From Vairimorpha necatrix (taxonomy: Eukaryota), in contig CP142735.1 in the NCBI GenBank assembly GCA_036630325.1, positions 868,001-932,000 on the forward strand: 64,000 bases of DNA. Direction: 5' to 3'. The position numbers and the translations under genes were made by a program. Shown here piece by piece: positions 2,535 to 49,403 of the stretch. The notes below the pieces were generated by a model. That model saw nothing but the letters and a program-made list of their open reading frames with translations. It was not told the DNA's origin and searched no databases. Numbering within the stretch: position 1 is the stretch's first letter; the number at the start of each line of letters is the position of its first letter.

Positions 2535-2560
2535 AATAAACTAAAATGGGAGATATTTAT

Positions 2561-2793: not shown

Positions 2794-2894
2794 TTTATGC
2801 TATTTATGCATTGTATATTAATATGCATAAATAATATAAGCATAAATATTATATTATTAGCATAAACTTACATAAATATTTATATAATATTTAC

Positions 2895-3940: not shown

Positions 3941-4270
3941 ATTAAAATTGGACTTTAGCGCATACAAAAAAATATAATATCTTATAATTATATAATGTGT
4001 TATAATATCTTAAAATGTGTGTTAGTATTATATATGTAAATTTTATTTATGTTTTATGCTGATGTAAATTCATGTTTTTATAATAGTATAAATTTATATT
4101 TATAATTTATGCGCATAAATATAAACCAAAATAACTTATAAAAACTATATAATAATGAATACTATATAATATATGAATACTATATAAAACAATATAATAT
4201 ATGAATACTATATAATATATGAATACTATATAATTTTTATTTCATTAGTGCTGTGTTGTATCCCTTAATA

Positions 4271-5317: not shown

Positions 5318-5535
5318 ACTTATTTTAATAATATTGTAAATATATAATAAACTAAATTTAATAATGTTGTAAAATAGGTTAAGAGATTTTTACTGTAGAG
5401 ATGATGCTGAAGTGTCTTTACATTGTAATGTGTATAAAAGAAGGCATTTTTTTATAAAAAGATCTAGTTTTTATTTTATAACTAGAGCTGACATTAGATT
5501 TTAATTAATAATATTTTTAGATACATCAGTCTTAT

Positions 5536-6600
5536 TTAAATTATCTTTTTATTTAATAAGTTTTTTAAGTAGTTAGGCTTCCCTGTCATATTTATAAATC
5601 TTCTCACACATGTCTCATTTATCAATATATTCCCTTTCTCATTTATCAGATTATATTCTACTAGTTCGCAATATGCTTCAAATATCTCGTCATCTCTCAA
5701 CTTCTTTAGTTCTTTACAAGTTATTATAAATTTCCTAAATTCTCTTACCACATCATTAAAGAGTACTTTTCTAGTACAAGACATAAGTAAAATGGCCAAA
5801 TGAGGAATATTTAGAATATTTAACATGGAATTTAGAGTGAACGGGGAGATGTCATGTTTTAACCTGTAGAAAATATTGACTAAATTGTTAATGTCTCGAT
5901 TTGACTCGTATTCGCGAGATAAAAGATCTAAATATTCTTGAGAGAGCATTTTCCTTACAAATTCATCATTAGAAATTGGCATTTGATCTTGTAATATTGA
6001 ATTAATTATTGTGTGTTTATCATCTTCTAATATTAGATTAAGTGTGTGTTTATCATCTTCTAATATTGAATTAAGTATGTGTTTACTGTCTTTAATTTTC
6101 TTCTTACTTCGTAATTTCGTATTTGTCTGTACGGCGGCACTCCGTTTTGGTCTCCCTGTCGTTTTTCTTGTTATATTAGTTTTATAAATTAAATATTTAT
6201 AATATGATAAATATTCACTCAGACTTAAACTTCTCAACAAACATATTTGATTAGAAAAGCGACTTCTTACTCGCTTCTCCATATTGTCTATCGCCAATAT
6301 ATTCTGAGTATAAAAAATCACTTTACATTTTTTTATATTACTAAGATCCAAATAGTAATAAAGAAGTGGATTATTAGTATCAAGCTTGATAATAATAAGA
6401 GACTTGTCTTTTATATCTTTTTTGGTCTTGATATCTTCAATATTGTAATTTAAAGACTGGAAATGTGCCTTGAAAATTGAGAGTGCATTTTGTAAAATAA
6501 AAATGTCAGTGGAGATTAGTAGAATATTGGAGTTTTGGTGTAAATATTTTATAGAAGAGATAATGTCTTGATTAAAAATATGTGAAATGAAGGAATCCAT
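5536..6600 (-). CDS. ORC4: Origin recognition complex subunit 4-like, divergent
   Basis: MEKRVRSRFS matches the ORC4 LEKRVKSRFS signature; ATG 6600 follows CCC; no clear Walker A. Confidence 0.65.
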   Translation of the reverse strand: MDSFISHIFNQDIISSIKYLHQNSNILLISTDIFILQNALSIFKAHFQSLNYNIEDIKTKKDIKDKSLIIIKLDTNNPLLYYYLDLSNIKKCKVIFYTQNILAIDNMEKRVRSRFSNQICLLRSLSLSEYLSYYKYLIYKTNITRKTTGRPKRSAAVQTNTKLRSKKKIKDSKHILNSILEDDKHTLNLILEDDKHTIINSILQDQMPISNDEFVRKMLSQEYLDLLSREYESNRDINNLVNIFYRLKHDISPFTLNSMLNILNIPHLAILLMSCTRKVLFNDVVREFRKFIITCKELKKLRDDEIFEAYCELVEYNLINEKGNILINETCVRRFINMTGKPNYLKNLLNKKII

Positions 6601-6867
6601 CAAGGGAAAAAAATGAGTACAAGAAAAGATAAACAAGAGATTTCTTGAATGTGCAATGAAACATAAGAATAATTTAGTAAAAATATAACATCATTCAGAA
6701 ATATTAAAAATACATTGTAACTAATTTTTACTACAAAAATGCAAGATCATTTAGAAATTATTACAAATATAATATCATTAAGATATTTTCTTCTTTTTGG
6801 AGTTTGTTTGTTTCTTGAAACAAATTGTTTCAAAAAAATATAAATTTGGAAATTTCTTCACCCTTGC

Positions 6868-9024: not shown

Positions 9025-9075
9025 AAGCACTATAAATGAAATATGTATAAGACATATAATTATGATTATTGGACT

Positions 9076-9224
9076 GACATATATTTAGTATTAGACATAT
9101 ATATAGTATTAGACATATATTTAGTATTAGACATATATTTAGTATTAGACATATATTTAGTATTAGACATATATTTAGTATTAGACATATATTTAGTATT
9201 AGACATATATTTAATATTAGACAC
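9076..9224. repeat. 18-bp minisatellite (GACATATATTTAGTATTA), about 8 copies
   Basis: Tandem copies between the convergent PIK1 and ENP2 3' ends. Confidence 0.95.
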
Positions 9225-9259
9225 ATAAATAATAAATCACATTTTAGCATATTTATATT

Positions 9260-10156
9260 TTATTCCACTTTGATGGCCCGAAACCAGTCGGGAATAAATC
9301 CAAAATCTGAACAGTAAAATGTCCGCATATTCAAATCATCAAGTCCAAGGAAAATCACCCCTCCTAAAATATCAAATGTATTTATAGGACACTCTACATT
9401 TATTCTATCAATTATTTCATTCTCAGAAAATATGATAACTTCTTCCTTGTCTACACTCACTACTGATTTCCCTACCATCTTAATCTTCCTTATACTCTCT
9501 TTATGCGCATAAATATTTAATTCCTTTTTAGATCTCAAATCAAAAATCTTAACTTGGCCAGGGGCGGAGCCAGTGGCGAAATTTAAGCCATTTTCAGAAA
9601 ATGACAAATTTACTAAATCTTCATCTTCCACTGTACTAATAATTTCTTCAGATCTCTGATCTATAAACTCAATCTTTTTATCTCCACAATATCCTATAAG
9701 CCCGTGTACATTATTAATATCACAAGACATAATCTTCTGTAAATTTGTTTTATAAGATTCTACGAATCTCCCTTCTAAAAGATCAAATCTGTAAATATCT
9801 GGAGATTTACCACATGCTAGTAAATTTGCATTAAAATTATTCATTTTCAAATCATAGCACATTTTGGGCACTCTGATTCTTTCATGCATGCCGTATTTTA
9901 CATGGAATTCTATGTACCTGTCAACTCTCAAGAGAGCGAGTTTCTCACAATTTTTTGTTAGAGATAAAATCTTTAGGGCGTCTGATTCTAAATGTCTGTC
10001 ACTTTTCTGGGCGATATTTACGAGATCGTGGATTTTTACAGAAGGTTTGTAAGTTCCGACTGAAGCGAGGAAATTCCCACTTTCTGATAAGTGCATGTCT
10101 TGACAAGCGACGGGATAATCAAAATTCTTAATTATTTTTGACTCTTTAAATTTCAT
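9260..10156 (-). CDS. ENP2: Enp2/NOL10-like WD40 ribosome biogenesis factor, shortened
   Basis: GTYKPSVKIHDL, DRYIEFH, IRVPK, IYRFDLLEGRF and G.IPDW motifs. Confidence 0.85.
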   Translation of the reverse strand: MKFKESKIIKNFDYPVACQDMHLSESGNFLASVGTYKPSVKIHDLVNIAQKSDRHLESDALKILSLTKNCEKLALLRVDRYIEFHVKYGMHERIRVPKMCYDLKMNNFNANLLACGKSPDIYRFDLLEGRFVESYKTNLQKIMSCDINNVHGLIGYCGDKKIEFIDQRSEEIISTVEDEDLVNLSFSENGLNFATGSAPGQVKIFDLRSKKELNIYAHKESIRKIKMVGKSVVSVDKEEVIIFSENEIIDRINVECPINTFDILGGVIFLGLDDLNMRTFYCSDFGFIPDWFRAIKVE

Positions 10157-10804: not shown

Positions 10805-10888
10805 TTGGAAATAGGGGAAGAGAAATGAAAGATTTAAAAGGAGTAGAGAAAGAGTGAATGTGATCATGAATATGACATCTATTTACAC

Positions 10889-10966
10889 AAAATGCCATAC
10901 ATCTATATAAAATGCCATATGTCTATATAAAATGCCATACATCTATATAAAATGCCATACATCTAT
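10889..10966. repeat. 20-bp tandem repeat (AAATGCCATACATCTATATA), about 4 copies, upstream of BDP1
   Basis: Seen directly. Confidence 0.9.
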
Positions 10967-11142
10967 TTGAGACTCATTTTAAAAACTATTTTATAGACCA
11001 ATGCATTTTTATACACTAAAAACATATTCTTAAGATTTCCTAACAAGTTTTTTCAATATCATGAAAAAATCTTAGATTTAAAAAAAAAATTATATTTTTT
11101 TTCTACTTTTAATAGTACAAATGAGCTAAAAAAATTTTTATT

Positions 11143-12398: not shown

Positions 12399-14458
12399 TG
12401 TCATGTATCCGGGGTACATGGCCATTTTTATAATATCTCTCTAAATAGTTTTTAATGTAAATATGTTTATTGATGGTTTTAGTCTCTCTCTTGGATTCTA
12501 TATATTCCATATATACCATACCCTTCACAGACAGACTTTCTTTTATAGTTTATTTTTAATTTATTATTTCTTGTCAACACTAAACACAAACATTGGCGTA
12601 CTTACGAATGTAGTAACGACCATCCAACTTTCGTTTGTTTGTTTGTGTGACTCATCATTACATGCCGTTTAAGATGTTTGACAGCTGGTTGTTTTGACAG
12701 TTGTCTATGTGATGTAGTCATGTACATCACATTCTGCCCTCTCCTAAAGCTTTAAATTTTTTAAAGATACCACTTCATTCTTATATATTCCTGACCACTC
12801 TTCATGTTTCAATATTATATTCGGCGGGTCTACTATTGCTTTATCTATAACACTACTTAACATTTTTTGCTTATTCTTCGTGTTTATACTTTCTAATATT
12901 TCATTTTTTTTCTTTCTTATTTTATATGTCTTCTTTTGTTTATATTTATCACGGTATTTTATTTTTATTAATTCATTACCTCGATTTCTTTTATTATCAT
13001 CTTTTTTATTTTCTTTTTCTATATTTTTCATCGGATTGTTAAGCTTCTTGTCAATATCTGTATTTCTTTTGACAATTAAATCCTTCTCTTTTAATATATT
13101 TGTTCCAACTACATTCTGTAGTTTCTCATGGCTAAGCGTTTTCGCTATTATTTCATCATTTTTCGATGTTTCATGTTTTGTTTTCAATTCTTTTGAATTT
13201 TCTTTATTAGTTACTTCTTGATTTTTTATTTTAATGTTCTCGACTTTATTTTCTCTATTAAATACTACCTCTTCTGGTATGTTATTTTTCTTTATTTCTC
13301 TAATTGTAAATAATTTTTCTGGAACAATATTCGGCATTTTTATGTTTTCTAAATTTTTCTTAAGCTGCTCTGAGGTATTGTTTAGTCTAAAGCAATCCTC
13401 AGTATTGTGCGTACTGTTTTTATGGAGGCAGCACCATTTATTGTTCTTGTAACCGTCCTTTTCGGTCTCAAACTTGAATCTATCATTATGAACTGATTCA
13501 TATGTCATTTCACGCCTTTTTCCTTCAAAAATCAAACACTCTTCCACTGTTTCTAAATACGTCATGGTTTCTTCGACGTTATTTTTTCCAAGCTCTAATA
13601 TCTTAAGACGAGTGGAAAAACCTAATCCCAAGAAAAAACTCTCTCTTAACTTTCTTTCGTATTCTTTTCTCGTTAAGTTTTCTAGTCTAGCATACTGATC
13701 TACTAGATTCTTTATTTCAAACAAATATTCTTTAATGTATCTGAAATTAATTTGTTTACATGCCTGTAGCTTTAAATGTAGCATCTCAGGACTTGATCTT
13801 TGACTTACATTTTTTTCAATATATCTTCTTATTTTTTCTAAATCTGGTAATCCAAATATTTGTTGCAATGTGGGATCTCGCACTAATTCTCCTAAGGCGA
13901 TTTTTTCTTTTTTAAAATCCCATTTTTTATTTCTGCTGATTCGGTTGAAATCCTCAAACCATGTATCTAGCTCCATTTCATTAAATTCTTTTATGTTTTT
14001 TATTATACTTAAGTTTTTTTTTACTTCTAAATCGATCTCTTCGATCGTATACTTAAATTCTAACGCTTCTTTAATTACTGCGTTGTTGTCCCCTTTTGAT
14101 ACTTTGTGGGAATTGAATTCAATTATGTCATGTATCCGGGGTACATGGCCATTTTTATAATATCTCTCTAAATAGTTTTTAATGTAAATATGTTTATTGA
14201 TGGTTTTAGTCTCTCTCTTGGATTCTATATATTCCATATATACCATACCCTTCACAGACAGACTTTCTTTTATAGTTTATTTTTAATTTATTATTTCTTG
14301 TCAACACTAAACACAAACATTGGCGTACTTACGAATGTAGTAACGACCATCCAACTTTCGTTTGTTTGTTTGTGTGACTCATCATTACATGCCGTTTAAG
14401 ATGTTTGACAGCTGGTTGTTTTGACAGTTGTCTATGTGATGTAGTCATGTACATCACA
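12399..14458 (-). mobile_element. Non-autonomous gag-only LTR retrotransposon (2060 bp)
   Basis: Identical 333-bp TG...CA direct repeats (12399-12731, 14126-14458); 5-bp TSD CATGT (12394-12398, 14459-14463); minus-strand PPT AGGAGAGGGCAGAA (12732-12745); no RT, RNase H or IN core. Confidence 0.93.
12744..14246 (-). CDS. Gag-like protein of the LTR element
   Basis: WFEDF.R....KW, KQ.NFRYIKEY, FFLGL and WCCLHKNSTHNTEDC (CxxHx4Hx4C knuckle). ORF opens inside the 5' LTR and stops at the PPT. Confidence 0.8.
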   Translation of the reverse strand: MVYMEYIESKRETKTINKHIYIKNYLERYYKNGHVPRIHDIIEFNSHKVSKGDNNAVIKEALEFKYTIEEIDLEVKKNLSIIKNIKEFNEMELDTWFEDFNRISRNKKWDFKKEKIALGELVRDPTLQQIFGLPDLEKIRRYIEKNVSQRSSPEMLHLKLQACKQINFRYIKEYLFEIKNLVDQYARLENLTRKEYERKLRESFFLGLGFSTRLKILELGKNNVEETMTYLETVEECLIFEGKRREMTYESVHNDRFKFETEKDGYKNNKWCCLHKNSTHNTEDCFRLNNTSEQLKKNLENIKMPNIVPEKLFTIREIKKNNIPEEVVFNRENKVENIKIKNQEVTNKENSKELKTKHETSKNDEIIAKTLSHEKLQNVVGTNILKEKDLIVKRNTDIDKKLNNPMKNIEKENKKDDNKRNRGNELIKIKYRDKYKQKKTYKIRKKKNEILESINTKNKQKMLSSVIDKAIVDPPNIILKHEEWSGIYKNEVVSLKNLKL

Positions 14459-28166: not shown

Positions 28167-30738
28167 GAAAGGGGCGTTAGTTTTTTTTACAGCTCAACAA
28201 AAATTTAGTGAGGTAATAAATAACATCTTAATTTTTTTTTCTGTTATTTACAATATTTATTATATATAAATTAATGACAAATCTAATCAAAGAAGAGAAA
28301 TTAGGTCATTTAACAGATAATTTATATTTTTTTGTTTTCTGACTTATTTACTCACTTTAAGATGAGATTGAGATGAATTATCGACGCATAAAGGGTTTAA
28401 AGGTCTCAATTTTGCCTTTCAATTACTATAAACAAACATTTGTTCTTTTTCTTTGTATAGTTTAATATTATTTTTATAGATTTTAAATCGTCAGAATTTT
28501 GTGTTTCCTTTTTATGTTTTGGATTAAAAATAAGTTTGAATTTGGTTTACATCATGAAATCATTTTAATAATGATATTAATAATACGTTGTCACTAAATG
28601 CTACAAATGTATTATTTAATTTGTACTTTATAATAGATGTTATGTAATTTTCTTGGGAATTATACATGCATACCTAGATCATTCTTTTTTATTATAAGAT
28701 TTTTAAGTTTTCCTAGCATAAAAAAATTTCAAATTTAAATATTTTTCTTATCTGTGTTAGCAAATATATCGTCAGAAAAGATGTTTTTAGTTTTTATTTC
28801 GATTGTAATTTTTTTTTTCGTTTTAATACCACAAAGCTTCGATAAATAAAAAAAATGTAATGTAAACTGTCAAATGCTTTATGATTACGAATATCATGCG
28901 GGTGAAAATATATAATATTTATAGGGGGATACGACATAAACAATATGCTCTAAAATTTAAATTTTAAGCTTATTATACACCTATTAAGTTAATTTCTAAA
29001 ATAAAAGAAAAAATATCAATTCAATATTTTTTAAAATATAATTATGCCTTACACTTTTTTATGAGTAATATATAGAAAGAACTAATATCTATTATAAATT
29101 GCAAAATACATATTCTTATTCATGTATAATATTGACATTAGACCTGTAATAAAAAATGTCAATATATAGATATACGCGGACATAAAAAAAAACATATTAT
29201 TGGTATATATTAGCTTGTCAATAGATAGGTCAAAAATTATATGTTTCCATGTTAGAATTAGCAATTCATGTAACATAATTATTAAAAATTGGGAATTATT
29301 AAAAATATAATGAAATTAAAGATGTTCGAATATAGCAATTAGGGATTTTTTTTAGATTATGTGTTTATTATTTCTAAATAATCAAACAACAAGTTCGTTT
29401 CCATTGTACCTTCAGGTTATATTCTAGTTTCTTGTGATAATTTATGTATTAGCTTTTGGACGTCATTTTTATTGTCTTGTATCTTTTTATTTTTTACAAA
29501 AAAATACAGAGACAGTGATAAATAATGTTTTATATACATAGTAGGATATTATTAAATACTTTATCACCCATTTTATTGTTATGTTGTATATAATATGAAT
29601 TACAAACTGCTTAAAAGAGGGGAAAGTATTATCTTAACAATGCCGTTAATACTTCCGTAAATAATTGGGAAACCATTTCGTATACCAATAAATCATATTC
29701 TCTACGTTCCAAATCTAACACGCTTTTTATGATATTCTGGAGTAGTTTATAACTACGTTGAACAATTTTTCAACCATTTTCTTATTTTCACTAACAGCTA
29801 ATATTATCATTTGATGATTAAAATTATTTTTTTGACATGTTTCTTTGTTTATTAATATATGAGCATATTGCCTTTTATACTCATCTGTGAAATGAGGTCA
29901 CTTTGCAAATATAAACTTGATTTTTATGTAAAGTATAGCTATAAATTGGCTGGGGAAATCTGAAAGAATCCAATTGAGATCGATTTTATTGATCCTATAG
30001 TGATGACGGCTGTATATTAAATACATACATGATATGTTTTGTACTAAAACTGTTATCTTTTTCGTTTGTTGCAAAATAAATTTTTTTAAATTGGTTTGAA
30101 CTAAATACGTATAGGTAATTGATAATCATAAAATTGAGTATTGTTTTTTATAAATCTTAAAATACTTATTGCGGAAAGAAAAGTCCGGTATTATCAATTG
30201 GTAAGCTGTTTTGTTTATCTAATGTTCAATTTACTTATTATAAACACGACGATTATTTAAATAATTATAATTTAATTAAAAATACCCTAGTTTAGATTTT
30301 GTACTAGACCAGAGCATTCATAAGCAAAATTTAATTAAACTAATTTTAATAACATTAATATATGATAAATAATGCCATTATATCAATTTTGTGTTCCAAA
30401 TCAAAAAATTTACTTGCGATATAAAAAAATAACCTTTGTCTTTATCGGCTAATTTCATTAAAGTTCTCCTATTTATATAATTAAAAATATATTTTTTCGT
30501 TTTAAAATCGAAGATTAAGAGAAGTTTTGCAAACAATAAATTTTAAAAAACAACAAAATCTTATTGCGAATATTTTTTGACCATGAAATATTACATAACT
30601 ATTTCTTTTTAATTGTGTAAAGTTATTGTAAAATAATTTATAAACTTAAATATGTATTATAATTGTTTATTTTAAGATATCTTAGGGGTAATAAAAATAC
30701 AAATTTATAAATATTCAACATCCCTCCTCTTTTATAAG

Positions 30739-31682
30739 CTAATATACAAGTACTTTGAGTTGAGACGCATGTCTTTTAAGCCTTCTTCCTTTTGATAATA
30801 CTATATACGAATTATTTTCTAATCGTTCTATAATCTGTCCTCTATCTTTAAACTTGGGTTGTCCTTTAGCTACAGCAAATTCGTTCTTTATTATCACCTG
30901 ATCGTTTTCATTGAACACTTCTTCGACTTCTTTATTCTCGTTTGCTTTGTTAAAGATAATAATTTCTTCGTATTGTTTTTCTTTTATTTTTGTCTCGTTT
31001 TCTTTTTTACAAGCTTCGTTTGGTGACATTCCTAGTTTCGAGTGGCAGATATTATTGTAAGCCTCTAACATTTTTAATAGTTTTGATTTTAGATTTAGAT
31101 TTCCCTCTTGTTTGTAAATCCCTTCCTGCACAGTTCTATTAAATCTTTCTACACGCCCATTTGATTGATGGTGAAAGGGCGTTGTGTAATGTACTTTTAC
31201 TTTATTCTCTATAGCCCAGTTCTTTACTTTGCTACTTTGGTTTTCTTTTGATGAATCCATTATCAACTCTTTAATTAATATTTGTTTGTTAATTTCGTTT
31301 ATAAAATCTACAATTTTCTGACTATCTCTAGTGGTAATAACTTTTCCAAACCCCTTTCTACTAAAGTAATCAATTCCTGTTATTATATATTGTTTATTTA
31401 TTGGTCCTATAATGTCTATAGCTACCTTTTCTCCTGTATAAAACGATTTAACGAACAAAAAGGCTTTTCCTCTTTTTGGATTATACATTTTACATCTTAT
31501 ACACTTTTTCAACTCTTCTTCAACTAATTTCTCCATATTATCCCAAGTATATTCCCTTTTAAGCTCTTTGGCTACTATTTTTGCTCCACGATGAACAAAT
31601 TTTTCGTATTTATCTTTAATAAGTTTCCTTTTTGTGTCATCATTTAAATCTTGAATTTCATTAACAACTTGGGCATCTTTTG
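30739..31682 (-). CDS. Integrase part of pol (different frame, joined by a shift near 31680)
   Basis: Frame reads KDAQVVNEIQ...VHRG...YTW..M...CIRC, IDIIGP, DYFSR, MDSSKE, SNGRVERFNRT; open to the stop before the PPT. Confidence 0.88.
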
Positions 31683-33950
31683 GTATAAGCGAGATATATA
31701 GTCTACATGTGCCATTTCTGCTCCCTTTCTGTATTTTACTGTGAAATTATACTGACTAAGTCTATCTAGCCATCTCTGTATTCGTTGAGAGCCTATTTCT
31801 CCTTTATTCAGAACTTCTAAGGCTTTATGGTCTGTTATTACTTCAAATTTATTCCCGTACAAGAAATATTTAAAATTCTCCATTGCCCATAATACTGCTA
31901 AGCATTCCTTTTCACTAATACTATAGTTTATCTCAGCAGGTAAAAGTCTTCTTGAAGCATATGAAATTGGATAAATCGTTTCACCTTGTCTCTGTGAGAG
32001 AATTGCGCCAACACCTGAATTACACGCATCTGTTTCTAGTATAAATGGTTTTGCATAGTCTGGTTGATATAATGCTATATTTGATTTTATAATAGTTTTA
32101 AGCTCATTGAAAGCTTTATCTTCCAGTTCTCCCCAACAAAAATTTTTATCTTTTTTGAGTAAATCATACAAGCATCCTGCAACACTTGAGCACATGGGAA
32201 TAAATTCTCTATAAAAATTTATAAAGCCAAGAAATTCTTGTAAAGATTTTATATTTTGGGGCGGTTTAATTTCATCAATACCTTGGCTAGCTTCTAATTT
32301 TGGTTTTATTTTGTTATATTCTATTATGTGTCCTAAAAATTCTACTGATGTCTTTTTGTAGATAGTTTTATCTTCATTTAATCGCAAATCATTATTTTTT
32401 AATCGTTCTGTTATAATCCGAAAATTTTTATCATGAATTTCTTCAGTTGTTCCAAAGACCAAAATATCATCAACATAAATGAAACATCTTTTACCAATAT
32501 CCTCTTGTAAAACATCATCCATAAACCGTTGAAATATAGCCGGCGAATTTTTAAAGCCCATTGGCATTACATTCCATTCGTACAAATGATGTTTATGTCT
32601 AAAAGCTGTCTTGTGCCTGTCTTCTTCTGCTAATTCTATTTGAAAAAATCCATCTTTTAAATCTAACTTTGAAAAATATTTTTGATCTTTTAAATTATGT
32701 AAAATTCTTTCTATACTTGGAAGCGAATATTTATCCAAATCTACTAACTTATTAAGTGCAATCAAATTTGTTGTTACTCGAACCGATCCATCTGGTTTCA
32801 TAACTGGTCTAAGATTGTTTAACCACGTAGATCTTGATTTTTGAATATATTTTTTCATTAACAACTTTTCTATCTCGGCGTCTATGGCTACTTCTAATTT
32901 CTGTGGCAATCCATACACTCTTTCTACGACCTTTTCTCCAGGTTTTGTTTTAATTTGACACACTCTGTTTTTTGGCTTTGCAAAAATTTTGATTAACTCC
33001 TGTTTTCCTAATAAAATTTTAAATTTATCAACCTTTGGTAAAATAAAGAGTTCGGTTTTATATATTTTGTCCATATAATTAAATTCAAGCTCTACTATAT
33101 CTCGTACTTTAAATTCTTCATCTAAACACGTAAAAAAGCTCAATTGCTTTATCCTCCTCGACACCTGTAATTTCAATTCTCTAACTGCACAATAAGAAAT
33201 AAAATTGAAACTAGAACCAGAATCAAAAACCACAGGTACTTTCTTAAAATTAACGTAGACGTAATTGTTTTTATTTTCATAAAATGAAGTGCTTTCTTCT
33301 AATCTCTCTTCATTATCAGATACTACCTCATGTACTTGCTTACTTGAACCAGTATCTCTATTTCTATTCCGAAAATAGCAACTTGTAGAAACGTGTCCTG
33401 GCTTTTTACAAATGAAGCAGGTTAAAGTTTTTCTCGGAGTTTCTTTTATGCTTAAATTTTTGAAGGAGAATGATAAATCGGCCTCCTTCTCCATTTCTTC
33501 AATGGTTTCATAAAATTCATCGTCAGTGTCATATTTACTGGATAAAAATATTTTTATAAGTTTATATCTGGGTTTAATACCGTTTTTTAGAATTTTCCTT
33601 CTATCCTTTTCTTCAATTTTTAAATCTTCGCATAATTTTATCGTTTCCTTTATAAATACAGAAACTGATTCATTATCCCTTTGTTTCTTAGAGCAAAGGT
33701 CTACAATAGAAATTTTTGTACTAAATTTCTCTATTGCTTTGTTTTTCCAATCTTCATAATTATAACTTGCTTTTCTTTTATTAGCAAATTCTTCTAAATG
33801 CCAGTTTAAGATATTTTCATCAAATCTACTTATAAATTCTTCCATTTTATCTTCGTCCTTTTTTATATTCCATTTACTAAGAGCCTCTGCTCTTTTTATT
33901 TCATGTATTATGTTGTTTTTAGTTATTTTTTCGTTCATATTCTCCACCAT
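31644..33950 (-). CDS. Gag-protease-RT-RNase H polyprotein (frameshifted before integrase)
   Basis: CFICKKPGHVSTSC knuckle, VFDSGSS protease, LDLKDGFFQ, MPMGFKNSP, YVDD, ETDAC, EKE, TDH. Confidence 0.93.
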   Translation of the reverse strand: MVENMNEKITKNNIIHEIKRAEALSKWNIKKDEDKMEEFISRFDENILNWHLEEFANKRKASYNYEDWKNKAIEKFSTKISIVDLCSKKQRDNESVSVFIKETIKLCEDLKIEEKDRRKILKNGIKPRYKLIKIFLSSKYDTDDEFYETIEEMEKEADLSFSFKNLSIKETPRKTLTCFICKKPGHVSTSCYFRNRNRDTGSSKQVHEVVSDNEERLEESTSFYENKNNYVYVNFKKVPVVFDSGSSFNFISYCAVRELKLQVSRRIKQLSFFTCLDEEFKVRDIVELEFNYMDKIYKTELFILPKVDKFKILLGKQELIKIFAKPKNRVCQIKTKPGEKVVERVYGLPQKLEVAIDAEIEKLLMKKYIQKSRSTWLNNLRPVMKPDGSVRVTTNLIALNKLVDLDKYSLPSIERILHNLKDQKYFSKLDLKDGFFQIELAEEDRHKTAFRHKHHLYEWNVMPMGFKNSPAIFQRFMDDVLQEDIGKRCFIYVDDILVFGTTEEIHDKNFRIITERLKNNDLRLNEDKTIYKKTSVEFLGHIIEYNKIKPKLEASQGIDEIKPPQNIKSLQEFLGFINFYREFIPMCSSVAGCLYDLLKKDKNFCWGELEDKAFNELKTIIKSNIALYQPDYAKPFILETDACNSGVGAILSQRQGETIYPISYASRRLLPAEINYSISEKECLAVLWAMENFKYFLYGNKFEVITDHKALEVLNKGEIGSQRIQRWLDRLSQYNFTVKYRKGAEMAHVDYISRLYQKMPKLLMKFKI

Positions 33951-35246
33951 GTTTATTTTAAGATATCTTAGGGGTAATAAAAATACAAATTTATAAATAT
34001 TCAACAATAATAAACAATTTTGAAGCTTTTACGACAATTTTATGATAAAAAGACGCAGAAGCAAACATTAATCAACTCAAATGGTTAAAAAATGTACGAT
34101 TTTTGATCAACGAAATTTGAATTTATTTCGTAAATGAAAATTTGGTATAAATCGATATATTTTATGTCATAAAATAAAGAGTTGCCTCTTAGTAGAACTT
34201 GCTGGTTCTATGATTAATAAAACAAAAAATACTAAAAAATCAAAATACTATTAGATTTATGTTTATATTGTTTAATTTTGATAATAGAAAGTTAGTATAA
34301 ACGAATACGAGTTCCAAAACAATATAGAATTAGCATAAAAAAATCATGCGGCCTTGAAAAAGCGTATGACAGTACAATCGAGATAATTAAGTGTGAAAAC
34401 AACAGGAGCTTTTATGGGACGTACCATTTTAGGCGATAATATCGGCTTTACCGGGTCAAGAGATCCACCTCAAAATTCGAATTTTATGACTTTTACAAAC
34501 AAATTTTTATACTAGTAGACGAGATTTACTCCTCAGACAGAAGGTAAAATTTAAAATAAAAACAAAATTAAACATTTTATAATACACTTTATTTTTTAGT
34601 AATCTGCTGCTCGAGAGCAGTCATACTTTACTTACGTTGCCATTGTTTTTACGCAATTTTCGTTAAGCTTATTAAGGTATCCACCACTGAGGAAAGTATG
34701 TAAAATGTTTTTAATGTAATTTTTACTTTTGCTTTCCATTACTCCGTCCCCAATTCGGGTAAAATAATTAAATAAATGTTGGAGGGGAAACAGGACGAAT
34801 TTGGAGGGAAAGATTTTAGAAATATTTTTTATGATATTTAGTATATCATACTTATTATTTCTCTTAGAGTGTAATATTTTTTTTCATAGAGAAAATTTTC
34901 AAATATTTTATATCAGTAGAAGAGATTCAACCATAGAAGAGATCCATGGCCTTTTCTATGGGGTGGATCTCTTAGCCCGGAAAACCAAGGAGCATTTTTT
35001 CGATATATTGCCTTTGAAAACAAAAAGTACTTTCTTATGTTGTATTTATTTATATTATTGGATTTTACTTTTTTCTTGTTCGAAATTTTGCACAAATTTT
35101 TTATTAATATATATATTCACATAACGAGGTTAAAGTATATTGTTTTTTTAAACGTATAATTAAAATCTTTTTTAAAATAAGATACAACCTTTTATCTGAA
35201 AATTTATTTGTTTTAATTGCAATTTCTACTAAAATACAAAAAAATA

Positions 35247-36241
35247 GGCTGGCTAAGTCCATTCTAGCACGCAAAATTCGATATAGGGGGTTTTGTGTTT
35301 TTTTGTCCCTTTTTTTAAAAAATGGAGGAGGGAAAATGTGGATGAAGGAACAAAAATTATCACAATAAATTTAATAATGCATCAAAAACAGAATTAGAAT
35401 TATTTATCTAGAGCAAATACCTAAATAAATAAAGTCTTGCACTATAACTGATCTATTTCTATTAGGTATGGAATTTTAAAGGGAACGCAAATTACCTTCT
35501 ATGGTGTTGGTATGAACTCCCTTATTTAGATCCCTGAAATACAATGAATGATTAGCCATATGAGTTTGGTTAAATATAGTACCCAAATAATTGTAGGCTC
35601 TCCACATATCGCTATATATAATGCTATATCCAATTACATATTTCACCAGAAGATCAGTAAGTGTTTCTTTATCCCTTTTTAATATGTAGCATTATGATTT
35701 TACGTTCTATGGTTCGTTAGACCATGCCAAAACACCAGAAGCCTTTCACTAATTTACCTCTATTGTATTTATTTTTTCCAATTTTTGATTCGTCGATTTC
35801 TACTATTATCCCTTGTCCACCCAGCATGTCAGAGAGATAAATATTTTTCGTAAATGCATATTTCCTTTAGTTTTTTCAATAATGAAGATATTGATTTTTT
35901 CGTACAACTTAAAATTTGACAAATATGCTTCCGAGAATAACCGATAACCCACATGTTAAGTATCTGTAAAAATGTTATATGTTTGAGTTTACAATTATCA
36001 AAGAACGTATCATGCCAAATGTTAATTGAATTTTTACAATCTTTCCAAGTACACTTTAAGATACTACTGTCTTTTCTATCTTTCTTTCCCCATTCCACCA
36101 TGATTTATATCACAAAATTTCTTTTGAAAAATCTTTATCTAATCATTATATATGATTTCTAATCTTCTCTCGTTAAAATTCTCTCCTCCATTTTTTAAAA
36201 AAACCTATAACGAATTTTGCGTGCTAAAGTGGACTTTAGCC
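35247..36241 (-). mobile_element. Merlin (IS1016/ISXO2-like) DNA transposon, degenerate
   Basis: Imperfect TIRs GGCTAA(A)GTCCA.T.TAGCACGCAAAATTCG.TATAGG at both ends. Minus-strand fragments GGQGIIVEIDESK, KYNRG, SDMWRAY, NHS, GVHTNTIEG with stops. Approximate 8-bp TSD (AAAAAATA/ATAAAATA). Confidence 0.88.
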
Positions 36242-36539
36242 ATAAAATAATATCTCGACACGGTTAATATTATAAAAAATTGAATCCCTAATGTGTATAC
36301 ACATGTTGTTTTTTCATAATTCTATGACACTTAAAATTAATTATGTTAATTTAAATTGTAATTTTAACCAATGTGTATATTACAATATTTTTCGTACGAT
36401 AATATATTTATTAAAATATTATAAAAACATTTTTATATATAAAAAATTGTGCAGATTTTTGATTAGATAATACTATTACTATGACGCATTATGTATAATT
36501 CAATAATCATTTATCAAAAAGCAAGTAAAATACATTAAA

Positions 36540-39500
36540 TGTTATAATCAGTAATAATATTAAACCCCAATTATGTTAAGCACTTATATGGGGGTGATAC
36601 CTAAAGAAGAGTTCACAAGAGAGGACTGTGGCCAAGTGGCCAGAAAGATGTTACAGGAGTTAGAGCGTATATTGTATGAATTGGATTTGAGAGATGTGGA
36701 TAGAGAGAAATGGAAGAGTGAGCTGTTCAAATTGGCTTCGATGGATTTAAAAGATTTTATTGTGAGAAATATCAAAAAGGAAGAAAATATTGAAGGAATA
36801 AGGAAGAAGCTATTGTTAAGGATTAAGGAAGTAGAGGAGGAAGAAAAGATATATGAGGAAATGAGAAAAATTATTTCTAGGACTATAAATGAAGAAATTA
36901 GTAGAGAACAACCAAGACAAAAATCGAGAGTACCGAGATGCTTCTATTGTGATAGACAAGGGCATAGGGTGTTTGAATGCAGACTGAAGATTAATAGAGA
37001 TAATTATTATAAAAAGAATAACAAGGATAACAGTTGCAAAATGGAAGTAGGTAGTGAATCAGAGTCAAGTCAGGAGCGAGATTTTAGAAGATCAAAAAGA
37101 GGACTTAGAGTCAAATTTGAGAAAAATCAAAAAGAATATGCCGTTAAAGAGGAGAGTAAGAGAATCAGATTAAATTTAGATAAGAATGCTAAGAGTTTTG
37201 GAGAGGTTTTTAAGTTAGGAAAAGAGGAGATAAAATATTGTAAACTGGAAAAATGTAAAATTAATACTGAAGCGGGTATGAAGGTATTTAAAAAGGGACA
37301 AATGGTTCCGCAGGCGTTGATAAAAGATACAGAGCTACATCTAGAAGATTTATTAAAAAGGAAAGTGATAAGAGAGTCAAATTCAAGTTGGAGGAATCCT
37401 ATAAGGTCAATCAGAAAGCCAAATGGTGAGATAAGACTGGTTAGTAATTTGATGGCATTGAACGATATTGTAGAAAAGGACGAGTATAGATTGTCTAACA
37501 TAAGAGATGTTGTAAGAGCTACACAAGGTGCAAAATATATGACGGGTTTCGACTTAAAAGAGGCCTTCTATAGTATTGAGATAGAGGAGGAGGATAAACA
37601 TAAGACGGCGTTTGATTTTAATGGCAAGGTTTATGAATGGAACTCTATGGTTATGGGATATAAGAATAGCCCGCAGATATTGCAGAGAATTATGGATAGG
37701 ATTTTTAGAGATATGAAAGGCAAAGGAGTAGAGGTGTATATGGACGATATTGTGTTGTACAGCCGAACGATAGGAGAACACGAGCAATTAGTGAAAAGGG
37801 TATTAAATAGACTGAAGGAAAACAATATGAAGCTGAATGCAAATAAAGTTCAGTTTTGTCAACGGGAAGTTAAATTATTGGGAGTCACTTTAAATGGAGA
37901 AGATATAATACCGTCAAGATAAAGAAAAATGAAGCCCTAGAGTTTCCGATACCAACATGCGTGTCAGATGTAAGAAGATTTTTAGGAATGACGGGTTGGT
38001 TCAGAGATTTTATTAAGAATTACGCTGGATTGACAGTTAGGTTGACAGATAGTTTAAAAGGGAAGAATGATAATTGGAAGTGGACGGATGATATGAAAAA
38101 CGAGTTTAATAATTTAAAAGAAGTATTGAAAGGCCTAGGAAAGCTGCAAATAGCAGACTATGATAAAGAATTTTTGTTGAGGACTGACGCTAGTAATGTA
38201 GGCATGGGCGCAGTACTGTTACAGAAAAATAATCAAGGAGAATGGGTGCCAGTACAGTGGGCGTCTAAGAAGTTTACCGTTACGGAAGTTAATTATGGTA
38301 TATCAGAAAAAGAAATGTACGCAGTTTTTTGGGGCGTTAAAAAGTTTGAATATGAATTAAGAGGTAGGAAATTTAGAATAGAAACTGATCATAAAGCGTT
38401 GGGCGAAATAAGAAACAAGCCCGACTTTAAGAATGCTAGAATTAATAGATGAGTCGAGAAGATTCAGGAATTTGATTTCGTGATAGAATATAGAACTCCA
38501 GAAAATATGGTCGTAGCCGATGCGCTAAGTAGGGTATATACAGAAGAAAAAGATGCAAAGAAAAAGAGAAATGAAATACGCCGTGATAGACAAAAAGAAG
38601 GGAAAAGAAATAAGCATGTAAAAATTGTAGAAGGTAAAGAATACTGGGTATTTGATAGTGGTAGAGAAGGCGAGATGCCTTTGGAACAAGACAGAGAGAG
38701 ATTAATAATGGATTGTCATGTCAATTTGAGCCACAGAAGCAGAACAACGGTATATTATGAGTTGAGGAAACAGTATTATTGGCCAGGAATTAAGGATCAG
38801 ATCGAAAAGGTCCTTAAGAATTGCGAGACTTGTCAGATTTTTAATAGAAAAACGAGTGGCGGTACTGATTTAGTGAACACGACAAGATATTTAGAGAAGG
38901 TTGGCTTAGATTTAATAGAATTTAGGGATGAGAAAGCGTTTATTGTTTTGGCAGTTGATTACTTTACAAGGAGATTATGGGGCAGAGTATTGAAGAGCAA
39001 GCACGCATCTGGAATTGCCGAATTTATCAAGGATTTGTGTAAACAGGGTAGAAAACCAGAGGAAATCATTACGGATAATGGTAAAGAGTTTTGCAACGAA
39101 AAAGTTACCGAGCTATGTAGAAATTTGGATATTAGTCATAGAAAGGTCAGCGTTGAGTCGCACAGAAGTAATGGAAGAGTAGAAAGAGTTATTAGAACTG
39201 TAAGAGATAGTATTTTAAAGAGCCAAAAAGAGGAATTCGAGAACAAGGTTTATGAAGCTATTGAGAAATATAATTTAAGTTTTCATGCTGGTATTAGGTG
39301 CACGCCAGTAGAAGCTTTAACCGATAATACAGGAAATGTTAGTATGGAGAATAGTCCAGAGGGAAAGTATGCGCAACAGTTCAAAAGTTGGTTTAGAGAA
39401 AAGTTCAAAAGGAACCAGATAGTTAGGGTTGCCAAGAATGAGAATTTAAAGGGATGTAGTAAGTATAGTAAGGGTCGATTTTTAGACATGGGAAGAGTGA

Positions 39501-39680
39501 TTGAGCTATGTCCAGGGGATTCATATATAGTGAGATTAGAGAATGGAAGGTTGGTGAAAAAAAGGCATTATGATCTTAAGGGTGTAGGGGATTTAAAGTA
39601 TGTTGAAGGAGACTAACCGTCTGGAGGGGGATGTTATAATCAGTAATAATATTAAACCCCAATTATGTTAAGCACTTATA
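36540..39680 (+). mobile_element. Ty3/gypsy LTR retrotransposon with 49-bp LTRs (TG...TA)
   Basis: Identical 49-bp repeats (36540-36588, 39632-39680); TSD TTAAA on both sides; PBS TGGGGGTGATACC from 36589; PPT GGAGGGGGA (39623-39631). Confidence 0.94.
36573..39616 (+). pseudogene. Gag-RT-RNase H-integrase polyprotein with one frameshift (~37917) and one nonsense codon (TGA 38450-38452); no visible protease
   Basis: CFYCDRQGHRVFEC, FDLKEAFY, YMDD, RTDAS, ETDH, H..SH...C..C, DLIE, TDNGKEF, SNGRVER. PSR* continues as IKKNEALEFP in the next frame, and RINR*VEK is at the conserved RW. Confidence 0.9.
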
Positions 39681-39691
39681 TTAAATTAATT

Positions 39692-40534
39692 TTATAAATT
39701 ATTTATTAAATTTTTTATATCCTCTAAATTTCTTAGATCCTCCATTTTTTCAAACATTATATTCATTTCATTTATACTTTCAAAATATATTTTGGTTTCC
39801 TCCGATAGTTGTTTTATTTGCTGTTGCATTTCAGTTATTATATTTTGAACAATAATAATTTTATTTTTATCAAAACATGAACACATGAGAATGTCATTTT
39901 TAATGTTCTGTAAAACTATATTCATTGGTATATCCTTCAAAATTTCGAAAATTTTTTCCGCCATTTTGTTATTGCTGTAAATATAGAATGTCATCCAATC
40001 TGCTTTAGTGATAGGTCGTGGATCAAATTTAATAAATGTAGTTAATACGTCAAATACAATTTCTAAATCTTCTTTATAATTGTTTAATTCATATTCAGTT
40101 AATTTCAAGTTTAACATATTTGTTTGTAATTTCTGATATGTATTTGTAAGTATGAAAATTATTTTTTCGTTCCATTTTCTTACTATATCACCAAGATCGC
40201 CATTTTGATATGTATGACACAAACTTTTTTCTAGACATAATTCATTGGTTGGGTAAAAAAATCCCCATCCCGCATTTGTATTTTCCATTATTGTAAAAAG
40301 CTTATCCTTCAAGTATTCAACAATATCCCCTTCAAAAGTGCAGTAATAGTCTTCAAATGCTTTATTAAAATAATCCAAGGGCAATGTGGTGCATTGTATT
40401 AATAGTGATTCATTTGGATATTTGGAATTTAAATATGGTAGAGGCATGGTTGAGTTGATAGCTTGTTCATTGGACTCTGCACAGACATTTTAATCTTCTT
40501 TTTGATTTAGTACAAACAAAAAATAAAAAAACAT
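39692..40534 (-). pseudogene. Lineage-specific gene with hydrophobic N-terminus and a premature TAA at codon 15
   Basis: CCCC-preceded ATG at 40534 gives MFFYFLFVLNQKED*, then continues in frame into the 251-aa ORF. Paralogue remnant at ~28 kb. Confidence 0.65.
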
Positions 40535-46217: not shown

Positions 46218-47900
46218 TTATTCGTCAATATATTCCGGGTCTCCTATGTCAATATCTTCTCCGTCTTCTTTATTCTTAAGATCTTTTATAAAATCCCTTA
46301 AGGTCCCCGAATCATTCTCTTTATTCTTTAGAGATGATATAAGTGACTTGATCTTATTGTTCATGTTCTGGTCATCTATGCTTACTGTCCTGGGAATGTC
46401 TTCCTTGCTTGTAGCGGGGCTTGAAGGGGGAGGACTTGGAGCTGCAGACTGATAATTATAGACAGTCTTTAGGACGGTAGTAGTGACAGTAGACTTAGAA
46501 GTCTGAGTCTCTGTACAACTGCCCTTATCCTTACAGGGATCTTCTTCTTTGTTCTTATCTTTATTTGAGTCTTTTTCTTTACTCTCTTTGTCTTTATTTT
46601 CCTTTTCTTTACTCTCTTTATCCTTGCTCTCTTTTTCTTTACTCTCTTTTTCTTTGCTAGGATCCTTTTCTTTGCTCTCTTTTTCTTTGCTAGGATCCTT
46701 TTCTTTACTAGGATCTTTGTCCTTGCTAGGATCTTTGTCTTTATTGGTATCTTTGTCTTTATTGGAATCTTTGTCTTTATTGGAATCTTTGTCTTTGCTG
46801 GGATCTTTGTCTTTACTCTCTTTAGTTGAGTCTTTGTCCTTGCTACTTTTATCTTTACCCTTGTCTCCGTCTTTACTGGGATCTTTGTCTTTCTCTTTGC
46901 TCTCCTTGTCTTTATCTTTGTCTCTCTCAAGTGCTTCAAGTTTTCTCAATATCTTCTGTAAAATGTTCTCATTTTCTTGGTTTTTACTTGGGCTGTATTT
47001 AGCTAGTAAAATATTATTAATATTGGAACATTCTGGTGGACAGCAAACATTTCCTTGGTTTTTACTTGGGTCTTGGCACGAACCTTGATTTGGGTCTTGA
47101 AACTTGTCTCTGTTCGGGTCTTGAAACATGTCTTTACTCGGATCTTGAAACTTGTCTTTACTCGGATCTTGACACTTGTCCTTAGTTGGATCTCGACATT
47201 TATCTTTGGTTGGATCTTGACACTTGTCTTGTTCTCCTTTGTCTACTGCTATATATTTCTTATACGACCCTGTAAACTTCAATGAATAATTATTCGGTAT
47301 CTTCTTCTTTATCTTACTAGCATCTTCTGTATCTCTCAATAAAAATATTAATTTATCATCATTCTCTTTACTATACTGAGGATCCTCTTCATCATCATAT
47401 TTATTTTCACATTCATCTTTTCTCTCTCCATAACACTGTTTATTATACGGACTACCTTTCCATTTACCATATCCATTTGCAAATACCTGTACCCAATACC
47501 TATTCTTATCTTTCCCTAAACATGACGACACACCCGTAAAATTATAATTCCCAAGTATATTCTTTTTATGTAACGGAGACTTAATCCAAACCTTAAAAAC
47601 TTCTTTAAAATCATCATTCTGTTGTTTCGCAATAATCTCGCCTATTTTAGAATACTTAAAATTAAAAAAATCCATTCTTTTTTTTAATGTTCGTTTTCTT
47701 GGATCAGGATTCTTATGTGTTAACTTATTTGATTTACACATCGTATTTGCTTGTAATTCACTAGCAAGTTTTAATGGCTCAATTACTTTTAACTCTTTTA
47801 AGCCGTGCATCTTCCTATACAAATTTGTCAATTTTATCATGTTGGTATTGCTTGATGAATAAAAAAATGGAAGAAGATGGAAAATGATCATATTATTCAT
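46218..47900 (-). CDS. Secreted CAP/SCP-domain protein with KCQDPSKD and KDKDPS/KEKES repeats
   Basis: N.YR..HGL..L, GEIIA, W.KSP.HKKNIL, YWVQVFA; signal-like MIIFHLLPFFYSS. Start uncertain (47900, 47891 or 48014). Confidence 0.85.
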   Translation of the reverse strand: MNNMIIFHLLPFFYSSSNTNMIKLTNLYRKMHGLKELKVIEPLKLASELQANTMCKSNKLTHKNPDPRKRTLKKRMDFFNFKYSKIGEIIAKQQNDDFKEVFKVWIKSPLHKKNILGNYNFTGVSSCLGKDKNRYWVQVFANGYGKWKGSPYNKQCYGERKDECENKYDDEEDPQYSKENDDKLIFLLRDTEDASKIKKKIPNNYSLKFTGSYKKYIAVDKGEQDKCQDPTKDKCRDPTKDKCQDPSKDKFQDPSKDMFQDPNRDKFQDPNQGSCQDPSKNQGNVCCPPECSNINNILLAKYSPSKNQENENILQKILRKLEALERDKDKDKESKEKDKDPSKDGDKGKDKSSKDKDSTKESKDKDPSKDKDSNKDKDSNKDKDTNKDKDPSKDKDPSKEKDPSKEKESKEKDPSKEKESKEKESKDKESKEKENKDKESKEKDSNKDKNKEEDPCKDKGSCTETQTSKSTVTTTVLKTVYNYQSAAPSPPPSSPATSKEDIPRTVSIDDQNMNNKIKSLISSLKNKENDSGTLRDFIKDLKNKEDGEDIDIGDPEYIDE

Positions 47901-49403
47901 ATTATTGTTTTGATTAGAAGTAAAAAATAATAATAAAAATGTTTGGAATTGTTTTAGAATGAAACATGGTTTTTTAAACAAAAAAAAAATTATGAGAAAA
48001 TGTAACCAGGGCATGAAACTCTAGATTATGAAAAATAGAGAGAGAAACTGGTAAATTAGGGGGTATAAAAAACGAAAATATTTATATAAAAAAAATTGAA
48101 AAAAAAATACTTTATTTTTCAATATTTTAAATATTTATGTGCTTTTTATTTTTTCGATAAATTCTTATTTGTTTACTTTTACTTCCTTATTGTTTTATTT
48201 CTCTTTTCAAATTTTGAAACAAAAAAAAAGTTTAGAGATCTCTAGTTTAAAATTTTTTAAATATGTAAAATAGTTCTAATATGTGCATTTGACACAAAAA
48301 AAAGAAATATTTTATATTAAACATTTTTGATTTAATAAGAGATTTTAGTTTAATAAATCATTCACATTCAACTTCACAATATATGTTATCACAAAAATAT
48401 AAAGCTTTAAGAATTGTTCTTTTTATATAAGGACTTAGTAGATCTATGAACTTGTAAAGAGCTTGTAGTGTTTATAATTCATATTATGATCATTTTTACA
48501 ATATGTTTATTGTGATATTAATTAAAAAGATATTGAAACTGGTATAAAATCATAATTATATAGTACAACCATCATAAAAAACCAAACGTATTCAAGAGCG
48601 CCAACATATAAAATCAGGACTTTTTAAGGAATTATTATTCTATTTAACATCGGGGCCATATTTGTGGCTTATAGTGTTGTATGTATCACAACATATGTCA
48701 CTTTATATTACCTTATTAAGCAGCATGATAAGGATCAAATTTTATACTCTCGTATTGATATAAATAATCAGGTATATATTACATCTGCATATCATACTAT
48801 ATAATCTATTATATACTGTTACGAGCATCAAAATAAATACAACTAATTAAAATACGTGTTAATTCTCCATATTATAATTAGTATCGACTTATATTATGTT
48901 AAATATGCTGAATAAACAAAAATAACAAACCACCAAAAAAATTTTACTTAAAGTATTAATTTGTCGACTAAATATTCTACAAGGAAAATATAAGTTTCAT
49001 AAAATATAAAATCAACTATCTTGCTTACTAAAATTGAGTCGGTTTTCTGATATCTAGTAACAAGGTTTATGTTTTTAAAAAAACAAATTCGCTAAAAATA
49101 TTATTAATTGATAACTATATTAAAAAGTCAATCCATGTTTTTAAATATGACCCGAGTTCATTTTGATAAATATGTGTATAATGAATGAGATGCACTTGCA
49201 TTTATTTTACTGTTATAATGTGTATACTTACTAGAAAATACTTTCAAGTTGTATGATTTTGCGACTTTGAAGGAAATCTTATTTTTTCTTCAAATACACT
49301 ATTATTAGTTTGTTTTTATACGTTTCTTATAACGTGAATTAATTTGCGGCCTTTAGCTGATGATATAAAAGTTTTTTTTAATCTGTGACGAAAACCAAAG
49401 CAA

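Follow-up and report, generated by a model that had tools for sequence, protein, structure and literature searches.

We have followed up a retroelement in a 64,000-nucleotide stretch of the genome of the microsporidian Vairimorpha necatrix (contig CP142735.1 of assembly GCA_036630325.1, positions 868,001 to 932,000 of the forward strand; hereafter the window). The element, here called element 1, occupies window positions 30664-34006 with the minus strand as its coding strand. It is 3,343 bp long and has the Ty3/gypsy order gag(CCHC)-protease (PR)-reverse transcriptase (RT)-RNase H (RH)-integrase (IN) between long terminal repeats (LTRs) of 57 bp. These 57-bp LTRs are a trait of a size class and not the result of truncation, because the target site of the element is found unoccupied in a contig of another sequencing run, a second family in the window has 49-bp LTRs, and relatives carry LTRs of 53-78 bp. 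We read element 1 as a copy of an autonomous, extremely compact microsporidian Ty3/gypsy element whose LTR would be a miniature U3-R-U5 unit using the promoter grammar of its host, and we give this reading a probability of about 0.6.

Structure and target site of element 1

The two 57-nt copies that bound element 1 are identical, have TG..CA ends and, on the coding strand, the short inverted termini TGTT..AACA. With up to three mismatches allowed the 57-mer has just these two matches in the window, and two or more matches were obtained in 0 of 100 shuffles. The repeats are flanked on both sides by a 5-bp target-site duplication (TSD), a polypurine tract lies flush against the 3' LTR, and a primer-binding-site-like sequence directly follows the 5' LTR (Table 1). 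An earlier reading of this DNA from its letters alone (the sequence-only reading) had reported the identical LTRs, the TSD, the polypurine tract and the positions of a CCCC and an AATAAA motif within the LTR; all of these are confirmed, and the two motif positions are exact.

The ends of element 1 are also fixed by a site that lacks it. Logan contigs of two sequencing runs, X1 and X2, were placed on window positions 30000-40500; they are assembled contigs, not RNA reads, and the depth of X2 is very uneven, from 5 to 9,299, and is not readable as expression. One X1 contig joins position 30658 to 34007 and so skips 3,348 nt, which is the element plus one duplication (3,343 + 5), with 5 letters that fit either side. 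This joint has the form expected of an unoccupied target site.

Between its LTRs element 1 holds essentially nothing but one gag-PR-RT-RH-IN frame. Pfam places RVP_2, RVT_1 and RT_RNaseH in this order, followed in the downstream open reading frame (ORF) by rve/rve_3; this is the gypsy order, with the integrase placed after RT, unlike in copia elements. The Pfam gag and zf-CCHC families gave no match in element 1 at E <= 0.01. The coding sequence extends into both ends of the internal region. The Gag start codon (33950-33948) takes its A from the final position of the 5' LTR and its TG from the primer site, which opens with TGG immediately after the LTR, and because the start codon spans this junction the primer site is itself translated, as MVE. 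At the other end 18 nt separate the stop codon from the 3' LTR, and the polypurine tract takes up 13 of them.

The same economy is seen in relatives. Of 13 relatives examined, 10 have an N-terminal MVE (ATG GTG GAG) among their first 20 residues, and the DNA locus of an eleventh, P0008 (locus L081), has the same TGGTGGAGAAC at its LTR junction, upstream of the called start. Some relatives (P0005, P0010) have '..EGC' C-termini; in element 1 the polypurine tract and first LTR bases, read in the integrase frame past its stop, give ..EEGC and then a stop, and from this DNA we take the '..EGC' ends of the relatives to be probable translations of a polypurine tract and LTR start. Frames that end inside the 3' LTR are seen directly in the DNA of L081 (18 nt including the stop) and L004.

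Table 1. Coordinates of the LTR elements of the window and of their parts
Feature	Window position	Strand	Basis or remark
TSD ATAAT of element 1, left copy	30659-30663		recurs at right flank
Element 1 3' LTR, 57 bp	30664-30720	-	exact repeat of 33950-34006
Polypurine tract AAAAGAGGAGGGA	30721-30733	-	abuts 3' LTR
Integrase part of polyprotein	30739-31536	-	-1 frame; stop codon 30739-30741
Zinc-finger CX2C and rve core of integrase	~31024-31413	-	rve/rve_3, Pfam
gag-PR-RT-RH frame	31644-33950	-	open reading frame, Pfam
One-letter difference parting RT-RH from IN in the window copy	31676-31677	-	contig comparison
RNase H, RT_RNaseH	31749-32135 (residues 625-753)	-	Pfam
RT, RVT_1	32322-32801 (residues 403-562)	-	Pfam; YVDD 32466-32477
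Protease, RVP_2	~32994-33260 (residues 250-338)	-	Pfam; motif DSG 33216-33224
CCHC knuckle CX2CX4HX4C	33378-33419	-	motif, element 1 Gag
Primer-binding-site-like TGGTGGAGAATA	33938-33949	-	directly after 5' LTR; encodes Gag residues 1-5 (MVEN..)
Element 1 5' LTR, 57 bp	33950-34006	-	exact repeat of 30664-30720
TGTT, LTR positions 1-4		-	element 1 LTR
TATAAA, LTR positions 12-17	33990-33995	-	element 1 LTR
AAATTT, LTR positions 15-20	33987-33992	-	element 1 LTR; overlaps TATAAA
CCCC, LTR positions 33-36	33971-33974	-	element 1 LTR
AATAAA, LTR positions 50-55	33952-33957	-	element 1 LTR
AACA, LTR positions 54-57		-	element 1 LTR
TSD ATAAT of element 1, right copy	34007-34011		equals left copy
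Element 2, compact gypsy, unrelated to element 1, 3,141 bp	36540-39680	+	LTRs, TSD, coding
Element 2 TSD TTAAA	36535-36539 and 39681-39685
Element 2 LTRs, 49 bp, identical	36540-36588 and 39632-39680	+
Element 2 ATTAAA-CCCC	36559-36568	+
Element 2 ATGs	36573; 36588-36590	+	second ATG at LTR/primer-site junction
Element 2 primer site TGGGGGTGATAC	36589-36600	+
Element 2 polypurine tract GGAGGGGGA	39623-39631	+
Third LTR element, 2,060 bp	12399-14458	-	TSD CATGT; purine-rich tract adjoins 3' LTR
Third element LTRs, identical 333-bp TG..CA	12399-12731 and 14126-14458

Several points weigh against this reading of element 1. The window copy is frameshifted, with the integrase in the -1 frame relative to gag-PR-RT-RH and the two frames overlapping around 31644-31740. 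The full gag-pol of the sequence-only reading is thus valid only after reading through one break, the integrase being one letter out of frame. Contigs of both X1 and X2 carry an extra letter behind 31676, and with an X inserted at the break the frame runs for 1,070 codons from the junction ATG and aligns end to end with the relative P0005 (residues 1-1069 to 10-1101, 47% identity). However, these contigs differ from the window copy at 16-21 other places and may therefore stem from other copies; the break may be peculiar to this copy or may be a letter dropped in assembly, and either is possible. The unoccupied site is represented by one contig with a depth of 2.1, and extra letters between its two sides are possible. 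At 8 of 298 letters the X1 flank departs from the window; X1 is thus from another strain or a close species, and the empty site is a difference between lineages and not necessarily a polymorphism. Finally, the sole tRNA in the window, a tRNA-Met (57090-57162), was rejected as the primer of element 1, since by eye it matches the primer site over 6 nt only.

In the public annotation of the locus the break is crossed in another way. The best protein match to the RT-RH frame is a V. necatrix protein, 100% identical over the shared part. At 31644-31760, protein P0003 joins RT-RH to the integrase by skipping part of the end of RNase H, its sequence jumping from '..WLDRLSQ' to 'NGTCRLYISL..', and the join appears to be an invented intron that bridges the one-letter break.

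These points bear on the alternative that the family is extinct in this genome, the window copy being a dead relic whose LTRs are identical merely because they are short. The frame break before the integrase would be expected of a relic, and 57 identical bases say little about age. Yet the in-frame form is carried by contigs of two runs, the site is empty in a related genome, and the word depth of X1 is ~12 in element 1 against ~2.3 in the flank, although depth gives no copy number. We consider a dead relic improbable.

Short LTRs in a second family and in relatives

Element 2, which lies on the opposite strand, shares 38-39% identity with element 1 in the RT-RH region. It codes for a CCHC Gag, RT, RNase H and integrase. 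No D[ST]G motif is present between its knuckle and RT and no Pfam protease match was obtained; likewise, the families listed for P0124-P0146, its 23 closest relatives, include no protease, whereas those listed for many element 1 relatives do. The window copy of element 2 has a frame break of its own, both runs carrying one more letter behind 37916, and an in-frame TGA (38450-38452) within '..ARINR*VEK..'; six relatives read ..RINRW.. or ..RVNRW.. at the matching stretch (by eye, unaligned). The primer sites of the two compact elements begin TGGTGGAG.. and TGGGGGTG... In one X2 contig a run of 20 T's immediately precedes the element 2 3' LTR (first base at window 39632); this run could be the poly(A) tail of an antisense gene at 39692-40447 on the minus strand, 60 nt past its stop, or the flank of another copy or solo LTR.

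Compactness of this order is common among the relatives of both families. Among the 17 best protein matches to element 1 there are ten single proteins with lengths of 1,064-1,112 aa whose contigs measure just 3,263-3,727 bp (for example, 1,085 aa on a 3,304-bp contig), and the element 2 family contributes eight relatives with 996-1,019 aa and contigs of 3,036-3,159 bp. In most cases the contigs of full-length relatives leave less than 200 nt of non-coding sequence. The nearest named proteins are those of V. necatrix, Dictyocoela, Pancytospora, Enteropsectra and Nosema granulosis. A search of viral contigs returned 33 pattern matches and no relatives.

A metagenome scan supplied 80 loci, mostly distant gypsy elements at 26-44% identity, and 20 of the 80 contain a direct repeat of at least 25 nt whose copies are at least 2 kb apart. 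In ten loci (L006, L023, L024, L028, L033, L035, L041, L042, L060 and L079) the repeats are contig-end overlaps or coding duplications, and these loci are not counted as having short LTRs; L045, L051 and L056 were left out of the tally. The LTRs of those tabulated measure 58 bp in L081 (element of 3,364 bp), 67 bp in L082 (3,530 bp), 66 bp in L007 (3,949 bp), 77 bp in L004 (3,580 bp) and 53 bp in L068 (4,679 bp, with the matching TSD GATGT), and 65 bp in L036, 72 bp in L008, 78 bp in L043 and 122 bp in L010. The contigs of L081-L085 and L088, although eukaryotic retrotransposons of this family, are filed in bacterial metagenome-assembled genomes (MAGs) with Clostridium, Erysipelotrichales and Carnobacterium titles; they are probably mis-binned and derive from microsporidia or other eukaryotes in gut or environmental samples.

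Not all of this material fits a short-LTR class. The LTRs of L083 are ~176 bp long, and some relatives have repeats of 234-645 nt at both contig ends, which could be longer LTRs or assembly overlap. The TSD is matched only in element 1, element 2 and L068 and is mismatched in L081, L082, L007 and L004, a mismatch that could come from chimeric metagenome contigs.

An alternative is that the 57-bp repeats are remnants of longer LTRs, the copy being internally deleted or truncated. Coding elements usually have LTRs of 100 bp or more, and the authors of LTRharvest expect 100-1000 bp (PMC2253517, as far as that source was covered). But the TSD, polypurine tract and primer site of element 1 are all flush with the 57-mer, the empty site removes exactly the element and one duplication, two families in the window and several relatives fall in the same size class, and the contigs of most full-length relatives have little non-coding sequence to spare. 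We regard truncation as very improbable, so that on this point the sequence-only reading, which took the 57 bp as the complete LTR, is borne out. It had also predicted that LTR finders with a minimum of ~100 bp would miss the class. The default minimum LTR of LTRharvest is indeed 100 bp (PMC2253517), and default runs would for that reason miss these elements.

Likeness of the LTR to host promoters

The comparison with host genes starts from the unusually small promoters of microsporidia. According to the parts of the literature covered here, 5' untranslated regions (UTRs) are shorter than 7 nt, as in Encephalitozoon cuniculi, a CCC-like motif lies just upstream of the start codon, an AAATTT-like signal lies farther upstream in highly expressed genes, Nosema ceranae being among the species concerned, and AAUAAA is used loosely (PMC2803860); CCC is enriched at -10 to -3 (PMC2685015). 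The host genes of the window conform to this description. Among its 22 ORFs of at least 150 aa, examined from -25 to -1 of the first ATG, 15 have CCC within the 25 nt upstream, against 6.8% of random 25-mers (binomial p = 3e-13), and in these 15 the CCC-to-ATG spacing is 0-14 nt. The window as a whole has a G+C content of ~26%, and the V. necatrix assembly of 15.0 Mb one of 28.3% (PMC12449221, covered in part).

The LTR of element 1 has AAATTT, a T-rich run and CCCC in this order. That of element 2 has AATATT and ATTAAA, then CCCC, and an ATG 4 nt on. Counted from the last CCC, the LTR ends after 21 nt in element 1, 20 nt in element 2, 19 nt in L081, 21 nt in L082 and 21 nt in L007, and this spacing of 19-21 nt spans three lineages (element 1 with L081; element 2; L082 with L007). 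In element 2, L082 and L007 an ATG stands 4-5 nt after the CCC, exactly 15 nt before the junction ATG and in frame with it; proteins P0016, P0018, P0019, P0126 and P0128 start with M-x4-M. Judged by these motifs, the LTR seems to resemble a host core promoter.

We propose that the 57 bp would form a whole U3-R-U5 in miniature. U3 would comprise LTR positions 1-36, that is, the TGTT integrase end, TATAAA/AAATTT, the T-rich run and CCCC, and would copy the core-promoter grammar of the host, with RNA polymerase II starting a few nt after the CCCC. The last 15-20 nt of the LTR would be R (plus any U5), and because R would hold AATAAA, cleavage would fall where the LTR ends or slightly beyond. Minus-strand strong-stop DNA would then be ~20 nt long and would transfer onto the same 20 nt of the 3' LTR. 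Reverse transcription as established requires that a productive genomic RNA begin within the 5' LTR, since strong-stop DNA would otherwise end in the flank and be unable to pair with the 3' LTR. We read the constant distance from CCC to LTR end as the likely outcome of a start just after the CCC combined with a need for ~20 nt of terminal sequence. R regions of 10-21 nt have been described (10 in Sire, 11 in mouse mammary tumour virus (MMTV) and 21 in Rous sarcoma virus (RSV), in the part of PMC3601003 that was covered).

Other features sit less easily with such a promoter. The CCCC-to-ATG distance in element 1 is 20 nt and so lies outside the range of the host genes. Six of the 11 tabulated short-LTR elements depart from the 19-21-nt rule: the distance is 29 nt in L004, 14 nt in L008 and 6 nt in L036, and the LTRs of L068, L043 and L010 lack CCC altogether. 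A(A/T)TAAA is not fixed in place either, since it lies near the LTR end in element 1 and directly 5' of the CCC in four of the five elements that share the CCC spacing (element 2, L081, L082 and L007). A hexamer 5' of the CCC would be in U3 and would therefore be transcribed only from the 3' LTR; cleavage at or past the LTR end, as far as the motif positions tell, may hold for element 1 only. Ordinary 333-bp LTRs are present in the same window, in the third LTR element of Table 1, and LTR collapse is therefore not forced by the host. The proposal of the sequence-only reading that the LTR is a host-type minimal promoter is thus supported in part, by its order of motifs, TATAAA/AAATTT and then CCCC, while the 20-nt spacing exceeds that of the host genes and the place of AATAAA is peculiar to element 1.

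Two alternatives give the CCC another meaning. Transcription could start only a few nt before the ATG, with an R of ~0-7 nt and the CCCC as an upstream promoter element rather than a mark of the start; first-strand transfer would then proceed by microhomology or from read-through RNA. This would agree with the very short 5' UTRs of E. cuniculi (PMC2803860) and with the host genes of the window, where CCC is never 20 nt from the ATG. It is harder to reconcile with the in-frame upstream ATG of element 2, L082 and L007, which argues for a start near the CCC because it follows the CCC by 4-5 nt, and the constant spacing in three lineages is easier to understand as a required length of R. We consider a start near the ATG unlikely, if the least so of the alternatives. 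A shade less probable is that chance in AT-rich DNA accounts for the CCC and AAATTT matches, the LTR having its own kind of promoter or the family being driven from elsewhere. The motifs are short, CCC has a chance of ~13% per strand in a 50-nt AT-rich stretch (extrapolated from the value for 25 nt), and three of the tabulated elements have none. Nevertheless, the CCC keeps its position across three lineages whose proteins are no more than about 38% identical, and the established mechanism of strand transfer demands a start inside the 5' LTR wherever the promoter came from.

We retain the miniature U3-R-U5 as the more probable reading of element 1, and raise a wider possibility more tentatively, at somewhat less than even odds. 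Microsporidia and related uncultured hosts may harbour whole clades of autonomous 3.1-3.5-kb elements whose 49-67-bp LTRs are a minimal working U3-R-U5. Such an LTR would hold the integrase ends, a borrowed promoter ending in CCC, a poly(A) hexamer and an R(+U5) of ~20 nt, and Gag would start at the junction; the element 2 clade would have lost its protease, and standard LTR finders would miss these clades systematically. If this is true, few self-sufficient retroelements would be smaller. The LTR of element 1 would itself put a floor under the necessary content of an LTR, since 57 bp can accommodate no more than the two integrase ends, a core promoter, a start site, a poly(A) signal and ~20 nt of terminal redundancy, and the minimal needs of retroelement transcription and strand transfer would become directly testable. 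A mobile element that has adopted the unusually small promoter grammar of its host would also be a natural reporter in organisms without genetics. There is a practical side too, in that gene callers annotate such elements as host proteins, here with an invented intron, and contigs carrying them are binned into bacterial MAGs.

Other repeats of the window and comparison with known systems

The third LTR element has a single 500-aa ORF that starts inside the 5' LTR. This ORF has no Pfam match and no similarity to the Gag of element 1 or element 2, and the element looks like a gag-only, non-autonomous one. Between the two compact elements, the segments 34563-34913 and 35265-35615 have a many-fold higher word depth than the single-copy sequence beside them in both X1 and X2, and are therefore repeated elsewhere; they showed neither terminal repeats nor a protein family. 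Around a 676-nt joint in X2, the interval 34012-36539 yielded no convincing terminal repeats, and an Rfam scan of 30000-40500 gave no matches. Tandem arrays are present at 2479-2835, 9040-9273, 10869-10968 and 46540-47235, with periods of 10, 18, 20 and 18/24 nt, respectively; the last lies inside a CAP-domain ORF (46218-48014) and encodes a repetitive low-complexity region.

Among known elements, Ty3 of Saccharomyces cerevisiae has the same order of LTR, primer-binding site, gag, PR, RT, RH, IN, polypurine tract and LTR as element 1, and likewise a TSD of 5 bp. Ty3 is ~5.4 kb long, with ~340-bp LTRs and two ORFs joined by a +1 frameshift, whereas element 1 has 3.3 kb, 57-bp LTRs and one frame. 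Ty1 of yeast resembles element 1 in that its Gag begins within the 5' LTR and its coding frame shares sequence with the LTR and primer-binding site; Ty1 belongs to the copia group and has ~330-bp LTRs.

Sire, MMTV and RSV provide a precedent for strand transfer on 10-21 nt, and the conserved LTR modules described alongside them, TGTT..AACA ends, a TATA box and AATAAA, are common to element 1 (PMC3601003, in the part covered). Their LTRs run to hundreds of bp, with a long U3 and U5, whereas the whole LTR of element 1 is 57 bp. Very short LTRs and small size are found in the terminal-repeat retrotransposons in miniature (TRIMs) and other miniature LTR retrotransposons of plants and ants (PMC3532108, covered in part), but TRIM-type elements are non-autonomous and non-coding, and element 1 encodes the full machinery. 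The element mag may have LTRs of ~77 bp.

Closest in kind are the Nbr elements of Nosema bombycis and the microsporidia-specific groups of Parisot et al. 2014, which likewise have a microsporidian host and one gag-pol polyprotein instead of two ORFs (PMC4202319, covered in part). The portion of the literature on microsporidian gypsy elements that was covered, to which the supplements and Xu et al. 2006 do not belong, gives no LTR length, junction start codon or promoter-like LTR, and the size class may already be on record in Xu et al. 2006 or in the supplementary consensus of Parisot et al. 2014. Against this background, the two compact elements of the window belong to a known single-polyprotein kind, and what sets them apart is their length of 3.1-3.3 kb, their LTRs of 49-57 bp, the start codon at the LTR junction and the likeness of their LTRs to host promoters.

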